From the IMG/VR virus record IMGVR_UViG_3300030381_000058: 46,648 nt of DNA; one strand, written 5' to 3'. Every line of letters starts with the position of its first letter. The first letter of the stretch is position 1. The position numbers and the translations under genes were made by a program. Positions 2,904 through 3,037 of this stretch are shown piece after piece. Under the pieces are notes generated by a model. It was not told the origin of the DNA and did no database searches. It worked only from the letters and a program-made list of their open reading frames with translations. This DNA comes from a virus.

Positions 2904-2962
2904 AAGCAAACAAAAAGCAAACAAAAAGCAAACGTAAGCAAAAAGAAGCAAAGTAAAGCAAA
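2904..2962 (+). repeat. Six AAGCAAA repeats spaced at the helical repeat (candidate secondary origin or iteron array)
   Basis: Exact AAGCAAA at 2904, 2915, 2926, 2936, 2946 and 2956 (spacing 11, 11, 10, 10, 10) in a non-coding gap. A 16-nt A/T tract follows at 3022-3037. The same motif and phasing occur at 32606-32664. Confidence 0.7.
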
Positions 2963-2988
2963 TAAAACCCAAATAACCTGAGCCTTTG

Positions 2989-3037
2989 AGCCAAGAATCA
3001 ACTAAAACGTTGGTTTTTGGCTTATTTTTTTATTTTT
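2989..3037 (+). terminator. Possible rho-independent terminator
   Basis: agccaa (2989-2994) pairs with ttggct (3017-3022), followed by tatttttttattttt. The loop is long (22 nt), so support is weak. Confidence 0.3.

Follow-up and report, generated by a model that had tools for sequence, protein, structure and literature searches.

We found that the genome of a temperate gut phage carries the same iteron array twice, once inside its replisome-organiser gene and once more in a non-coding gap among the late head genes. The two arrays are identical in kind, the heptamer AAGCAAA from which they are built is linked to the DUF6291 domain of the organisers across the family, the late copy occupies the place of oriR in phage SPP1, and its sequence is kept by purifying selection. 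The late array is probably an SPP1-oriR-like initiator-binding site, as predicted from these observations, and we infer from them both the binding of the organiser to the tract and every consequence that such binding would have downstream.

Two phased AAGCAAA arrays in one genome

The window is the whole stretch of DNA that was analysed (46,648 nucleotides). Because the portal ORF crosses its ends, the window represents a complete, circularly permuted phage genome, and on this circle the two arrays lie 16.9 kb and 29.7 kb apart. The region around the late array contains the following features.

655..2578, + strand: minor capsid protein 2 gene, interrupted by an HNH endonuclease ORF (1552-2223); it corresponds to SPP1 gene 7
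2714..2875, + strand: small Cys-rich ORF of 53 aa with a codon-position diversity pattern; its stop codon abuts the array
2874..2975, + strand: late array, helically phased and A-rich, about ten units of the form AA[GCT]C[AC]A[AG]
2874, 2884, 2894, 2904, 2915, 2926, 2936, 2946, 2956 and 2966, + strand: starts of the late-array units
2904..2962, + strand: core of six exact AAGCAAA heptamers
2964..2978, + strand: AAAACCCAAATAACC, one mismatch from a 15-mer repeated in the cassette-B initiator gene of relatives
2987..3036, + strand: predicted intrinsic terminator, a hairpin and then a T-run (consensus scan)
3037..3098, + strand: GP20-b RNA motif (Rfam RF03003) in the 5' leader of the scaffold gene, full-length match to the covariance model
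3115..3759, + strand: head scaffolding protein gene (PF06810 / GP20 type)

The initial annotation had described six AAGCAAA heptamers at helical spacing, and we could confirm them. The exact copies of the core start at 2904, 2915, 2926, 2936, 2946 and 2956 on the + strand, with spacings of 11, 11, 10, 10 and 10 bp (mean 10.4 bp). The array as a whole turned out to be longer than reported there, with about ten phased units between 2874 and 2975; the degenerate units at 2874, 2884, 2894 and 2966 (AACCAAA, AACCAAA, AATCAAG and AACCCAA) keep the phase of the others. In agreement with this, TRF delimits a repeat of period 10 and 8.8 copies at 2873-2962, and the pattern AA[GC]C[AC]AA matches 9 times inside 110 bp of the late array, compared to 36 times on the entire + strand. 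At 70% AT, the late array ranks among the two 100-bp stretches with the highest AT content in the genome. Overall, the window contains 18 copies of AAGCAAA, where shuffled sequences have 11.1 +/- 3.5, and 10 of the 18 fall into two clusters. When every 7-mer in the window was scanned for at least four copies at 9-12 bp spacing, the only phased arrays in the 46.6 kb were those at 2904-2962 and 32606-32654, both made of AAGCAAA. The one other short helically phased repeat in the window is TTGGGCAGAAA at 20978-21017, with 3.6 copies at an 11-bp period.

The second of these clusters belongs to the replication module, which comprises the following features.

29943-30449, + strand: Gam/Gp157-like gene
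30374-31057, + strand: exonuclease gene
31041-31763, + strand: HNHc_6 nuclease gene
31957-32352, + strand: SSB gene
32383..33162, + strand: replisome-organiser gene of cassette A, encoding a DUF6291 N-domain, a low-complexity linker and a DnaD-like / O-like C-domain
32606..32664, + strand: in-gene iteron array of six AAGCAAA units, four of them exact and two with one mismatch
32686..32760, + strand: purine-rich hexamer repeats (GGGGAA, GATGTA) and an A-rich run, 3' of the in-gene iterons
33114..33896, + strand: G39P-like helicase loader (PF11417, 63.4 bits)
33893-34285, + strand: RusA-like resolvase gene

The occurrence of the same heptamer with the same phasing in the organiser gene, also put forward in the initial annotation, held as well. 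The in-gene units start at 32606, 32616 (AAGCAAc), 32627, 32638, 32648 and 32658 (tAGCAAA), with spacings of 10, 11, 11, 10 and 10 bp, and the repeats of the late array match them in sequence, orientation and phasing. Alignment of the late tract with the in-gene origin region gives a score of 44, against 23.5 +/- 4.6 in shuffles (P <= 0.001). The in-gene array sits in the low-complexity linker, between an N-domain that belongs to DUF6291 (PF19808) and a C-domain that matches PHROGs annotated as DnaD-like loader or O-like initiator, and a GGGGAA/GATGTA microsatellite follows at 32686-32732. With at least four helically spaced direct repeats in the linker-coding part, conserved as DNA across divergent homologues, 32606-32760 has the make-up of an iteron-type phage origin inside an initiator gene, of the lambda O or SPP1 oriL type. 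The loader gene next to it likely starts at the ATG at 33159, which overlaps the organiser stop codon, and a replicative helicase gene was not found in the window genome. A second HNH endonuclease (34269-34808) follows the RusA gene; it is a paralogue of the ORF at 1552-2223, and both belong to PHROG 374.

The organiser gene of the window has a short DNA match to replisome-organiser genes of Ruminococcus gnavus phages. A confident AlphaFold2 model of its DUF6291 domain (32383-32616) consists of three helices (pLDDT 86.6), and comparison of this model with the PDB returned no fold match and no known DNA-binding fold. The N-domain has no sequence match to solved structures either, so no DNA-binding fold can be assigned to it. 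Of note, most members of the DUF6291 family end in GGRPKK, an AT-hook-like sequence, exactly where the A-rich repeats start.

The heptamer and DUF6291 across phages

Searching IMG/VR by DNA pattern only, as three AAGCAAA at 10-11-bp spacing, yielded at least 119 loci on unrelated viral contigs. Among the 119 matches listed, 67 arrays lie 0-180 bp downstream, on the same strand, of a homologue of the organiser N-domain, for which the query was the first 72 residues, a part of the protein encoded upstream of the array and not by the array. Many of the remaining loci among the matches listed are visibly the same kind of gene, or else non-coding arrays. The 60 distinct rep-linked arrays among these matches contain 3-7 heptamers each, at a spacing of 10 bp in 63 cases and 11 bp in 96, with 63 different spacers and at loci that range from 27 to 57% GC. 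An invariant heptamer, free spacers and a frame-shifting 11-bp period indicate a constraint on the DNA and not on the protein. Moreover, the spread of the array over very different hosts argues that its binding partner is a phage protein and not a host factor. In about half of the rep-linked arrays among the matches listed, a 5-6-bp microsatellite comes next, as in the window.

The same arrangement was reached from the protein side. Cultured phages with DUF6291 reps, chosen by protein only (hosts Shewanella, Vibrio, Aeromonas, Riemerella and Olleya), have a repeat block and then a hexamer microsatellite, with AACCCA(A)n as the repeat class. In Shewanella ZP9, Vibrio 1.265.O, Aeromonas phiA005, Riemerella-type PJN03 and Olleya Harreka_1 (L251-L258), the DUF6291 'hypothetical proteins' adjoin helicase or loader genes. 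Right after the N-domain come AACCCA(A)n repeats, and after these GATAGT or AATGTA microsatellites. These repeat blocks are probably unannotated in-gene origins. On these comparisons, DUF6291 is very probably an origin-binding domain and AAGCAAA one of its iteron classes. Nothing relevant was found in the literature on AAGCAAA as a phage iteron.

A second array also exists elsewhere. Among 15 other complete genomes with in-gene AAGCAAA arrays, one has it: G055 (L166, L167), an unrelated 41-kb phage with AAGCAAA arrays at 8020-8075 and 40722-40808. One of them lies in the rep gene, and the other is intergenic and adjoins an XRE-type repressor-like gene. Both arrays contain AAAAAGCAAATGGTTTTT, and (GATAAT)6 and AT-rich DNA come after the intergenic one. 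The rep protein of this phage combines DUF6291 with PF09524 (Phg_2220_C), the C-domain type of SPP1 G38P. At another locus (L090) the array is extragenic only, between the integrase and repressor genes. On the other hand, a phased array upstream of the scaffold gene was found in none of 59 more distant GP20-scaffold phages, in a scan that does detect SPP1 oriR as a control. Hence, the two-site layout recurs but is uncommon.

The gap, the initiator cassettes and the conservation of the tract

The relatives compared below are 22 IMG/VR contigs that share the head module, with 93-96% scaffold identity. In the window, the gap at 2876-3114 is non-coding, as the initial annotation had it; the adjoining ORFs end at 2875 and begin at 3115, and the first of them, the 53-aa ORF at 2714..2875, has no family match. 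One 11-bp unit of the array core is specific to the window genome, and the relatives have five core units. As this unit is absent from 22 of 22 relatives, no reading frame is kept across the gap. The gap has three parts, namely the array (2874-2975), the predicted terminator (2987-3036) and the GP20-b leader (3037-3098). The predicted terminator hairpin (2987-3024) has 16 pairs, five of them G-C, and a loop of 6, and is followed by TTTTTTTATT; among the relatives, pi of the predicted terminator is 0.011. GP20-b has been described as a cis-regulatory motif that precedes scaffold genes of the GP20 type. Here its match, 62 nt long and upstream of the GP20 scaffold gene, scores 46.9 bits against a gathering score of 36.2 (E = 3.7e-9), and the motif is also present in distant relatives (L145, L146). 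These two known elements explain about half of the gap that had been called unusual. The A/T tract that had been proposed as an origin element, cttatttttttatttttg, is indeed found at 3021-3038, but it is the tail of the predicted terminator hairpin, that is, its U-tail. Since the T-run, together with GP20-b, is kept in distant relatives (45-51% scaffold identity) that have no array, it cannot be counted as a dedicated unwinding element. Further downstream, the scaffold gene contains a 21-bp in-frame tandem unit repeated 2.7 times at 3205-3261, of which the nearest relative (G001) has one unit fewer.

These data bear directly on the idea of a true second origin, in which the organiser, bound to the late array, would melt the T-rich stretch at 3010-3039 and load the host helicase, so that replication would start at two places. 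The geometry is like that of the in-gene origin, as the most AT-rich 30 bp of the neighbourhood lies 40-60 bp after the iterons at both arrays (80% AT at 3010, 73% at 32726), and AT-rich DNA clearly adjoins the second array of G055. In SPP1, oriL and oriR consist of repeat arrays and an AT-rich region and are both bound by gp38 (PMC6316719, PMC3485210), and oriR has classically been called an origin (PMC6316719). However, the stretch at 3010-3039 is the tail of the predicted terminator, which array-less relatives keep as well, and the hexamer microsatellite that comes after in-gene iterons in this family is absent from the late array. In addition, it is from oriL that theta replication of SPP1 was reconstituted, whereas oriR is modelled as an initiator-bound fork barrier and not as a firing origin (PMC3485210, PMC6316719). 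We regard a true second origin as unlikely, and a regularly firing origin as a less likely role for the late array than that of a barrier, a switch or a sink. Of the grounds on which a second origin could be argued, the shared iteron, the link to DUF6291, the G39P-type loader, the oriR slot and the conservation are supported. The gap is explained in part by known elements, and the array does not co-vary with the initiator.

This last point emerged from the replication modules of the relatives, in which three initiator cassettes occur downstream of the conserved SSB gene.

Cassette A: window-like sequence in five relatives, with AAGCAAA as in-gene repeats
Cassette B: eleven genomes, with AAAACCCAAAAAACC as in-gene repeats and a GACATA microsatellite
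Cassette C: one genome, with AACCAAAAC-type in-gene repeats

The N-domains of cassettes A, B and C, and that of the G055 rep, all belong to Pfam DUF6291. The organiser of G009 (L157, L266) is a chimera that joins the cassette-C DUF6291 N-domain and repeats to a C-domain 98% identical to that of cassette A, which indicates that an exchange carries over the N-domain along with the in-gene repeats. Cassette B or C is present in 12 of the 18 relatives with a readable initiator gene, and all of these keep the array, with three to five exact AAGCAAA. The late array is independent of the cassette, being kept with B (11 genomes) as well as with C (1 genome), and the notion that the array tracks its initiator was dropped. 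The low diversity of the tract also holds inside the cassette-A genomes (pi 0.038) and inside the cassette-B genomes (pi 0.023), and segregating sites in the heptamers do not differ significantly between B (4/35) and A (1/35). Each of the two scaffold-leader variants is found with A as well as with B, which points to reassortment. The persistence of the array across cassettes weighs most heavily against a simple "cognate second origin".

Cross-recognition between the cassettes, or a composite site, is plausible on the sequences at hand. The late tract aligns with the cassette-C origin region with a score of 50 against 31.4 +/- 5.4 (P = 0.004), and eight other phages whose N-domains are 64-73% identical to that of cassette C have exact AAGCAAA arrays; short C-type motifs in the late tract are not significant (P = 0.14-0.19). 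As for cassette B, alignment of the whole late tract with its origin is not significant (P = 0.22). The AAAACCCAAATAACC at the end of the tract, one mismatch from the cassette-B 15-mer, has P = 0.007 in local dinucleotide shuffles, and five cassette-B genomes have, apart from this site, no copy with one mismatch or none beyond the rep gene. Cassette-B origins themselves hold one to three AAGCAAA units, and their repeat class AACCCAAAAAACC (not AAGCAAA) is common to cultured Shewanella, Vibrio and Riemerella phages. A tract that resembles the cassette-C origin and holds a near-perfect B 15-mer would explain its retention with all three cassettes. If the cassettes do not cross-bind, the function of the tract cannot depend on the resident initiator.

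A different reading is an initiator-independent cis element for late gene expression, either curved A-tract DNA or an unstructured A-rich 3'-UTR. Such an element may be an upstream activating bend, a factor-binding site for the scaffold/capsid operon, or an element for RNA stability or termination efficiency, and its likeness to the iterons may stem from copying or from coincidence. The tract is equally conserved with any initiator cassette, belongs to the most AT-rich 100 bp of the genome, and forms the end of the upstream transcription unit, directly before the predicted terminator and GP20-b; as RNA it is predicted to be unstructured. Against this, a match to the family-wide iteron in heptamer, phase and copy number is hard to obtain by chance, no sigma-70-like promoter was found at 2400-3400, and the array is missing from distant relatives that share the terminator and the GP20-b leader. 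We consider a cis element of this kind doubtful. It is likewise conceivable, if rather improbable, that the late tract is a 'universal' landing pad for the three reassorting cassettes that becomes a theta-to-concatemer fork barrier once bound. Such a pad would combine five or six AAGCAAA of the A type with a near-perfect AAAACCCAAATAACC of the B type and, on its flanks, C-like AACCAAA units, and by carrying sites for all cassettes it would keep the structural half of the genome compatible with any recombined replication cassette.

The initial annotation had suggested a search of related phages for the array. The array is kept in 22 of 22 relatives, with 3-8 exact heptamers. Within the tract at 2876-2986, 10 of 100 sites segregate, compared to 215 of 391 codon-3 sites in the flanking genes (Fisher p = 1.5e-17). 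The corresponding pi is 0.029 in the tract, 0.16-0.19 at the codon-3 sites and 0.197 in the other intergenic gap (2579-2713), so that variation in the tract is five to six times lower than in either. Within the array, pi is lower in the heptamers (0.024) than in the spacers (0.051), on small numbers. A diversity so far below that of codon-3 sites indicates purifying selection. Neutral slippage debris, or a functionless remnant of some past recombination that involved the origin region, is accordingly very improbable, even though the number of units varies (one extra 11-bp unit in the window, heptamers gained by point changes in G006-G008) and the array occurs in a single shallow clade only (93-96% scaffold identity).

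Beyond this clade, a DNA search of cultured phages returned no relative of the gap, only spurious 60-80-bp matches, and no prophage relatives were found by scaffold protein in species-representative genomes. We also considered the array as a clean insertion relative to L145, and set this aside because the upstream alignment is too poor to call. G024, a distant relative that has no array and is 82% complete, has no DUF6291 gene.

Proposed role and known systems

On balance, we find it likely that 2874-2975 is a second iteron cluster for the DUF6291-type organiser, located outside the in-gene origin and acting as a barrier, a switch or a sink. For SPP1, it has been proposed that gp38 at oriR stalls the fork and triggers the switch to concatemers by means of exonuclease, recombinase, SSB and resolvase (PMC6316719, PMC3485210). 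In the phage studied here, the organiser would be produced early after infection or induction and then cover some ten sites, which all face the same side of A-tract-phased and probably curved DNA. The resulting nucleoprotein complex would stand at the boundary of two head-gene transcription units, some 16.9 kb from the in-gene origin on the circle. By analogy with SPP1 oriR, it would most likely be a replication-fork barrier or a switch point, and the switch would be helped by the exonuclease, the SSB and the RusA resolvase of the phage. The complex may also serve as a sink for the initiator.

If the organiser binds the tract, the two-site layout of a single model phage, SPP1, would also exist in temperate gut phages, with an unrelated origin-binding domain. 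In that case, the layout would look like a recurrent way of switching from circle-to-circle replication to concatemers. The comparative data also suggest a concrete function for DUF6291, as the iteron-binding domain of phage replisome organisers, and the repeat classes AAGCAAA and AACCCA(A)n would help to find origins in uncultured phage genomes. Furthermore, 22 near-identical structural modules with three cassettes and one conserved array represent a natural experiment on the cross-recognition of initiators.

Among known systems, the in-gene region at 32606-32760 is like the lambda ori in gene O and like the organisers of the lactococcal P335 type (Tuc2009, TP901-1), in that phased iterons in the linker-coding part are followed by an easily melted stretch. 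To our knowledge, these systems have a single origin only; the window differs in having a late-region copy of the array. Extra initiator-binding clusters away from the firing origin are found in P1 incA, F incC and the alpha, beta and gamma loci of R6K, where they titrate or 'handcuff' the initiator and do not start replication. The late array is like these loci in being an additional cluster of putative initiator-binding repeats away from the origin, although they serve in the copy-number control of plasmids and involve different initiator families. Finally, GP20-b (RF03003) accounts for the 3' part of the gap only, and not for the array.

The closest comparison is with SPP1. There, the duplicate initiator array to which the initial annotation had referred is borne out by the SPP1 record, with boxes common to gene 38 and to the gap directly after the minor-head gene 7, upstream of genes 8-10 and the scaffold gene 11 (PMC6316719). 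In the window, too, one array lies inside the initiator gene. A second one, in the same orientation, is found at roughly a third of the circle from it, in a non-coding gap that follows the minor-head gene and precedes the scaffold gene. A G39P-type loader gene comes next after the organiser gene, as in SPP1, and genes for an exonuclease, an SSB and a Holliday-junction resolvase are present, as the proposed theta-to-sigma switch requires. Unlike SPP1, however, the phage is temperate, and no phage helicase gene was found in it (SPP1 has the helicase G40P). The iteron is AAGCAAA and not the AAAGACAC and ACAATGATAA boxes of SPP1, and the window has no second box type and no separate AT-rich block. 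The order of elements also differs, being stop codon, array and terminator here, and terminator, oriR and three extra genes in SPP1. Likewise, the organiser has a DUF6291 N-domain, which G38P does not have, and the only pairwise similarity of the two proteins covers 23 residues in the C-domain (E = 3e-4), which is why we do not count the organiser as a G38P homologue. Judged by its sequence and setting, the late array is an analogue, not an orthologue, of SPP1 oriR.
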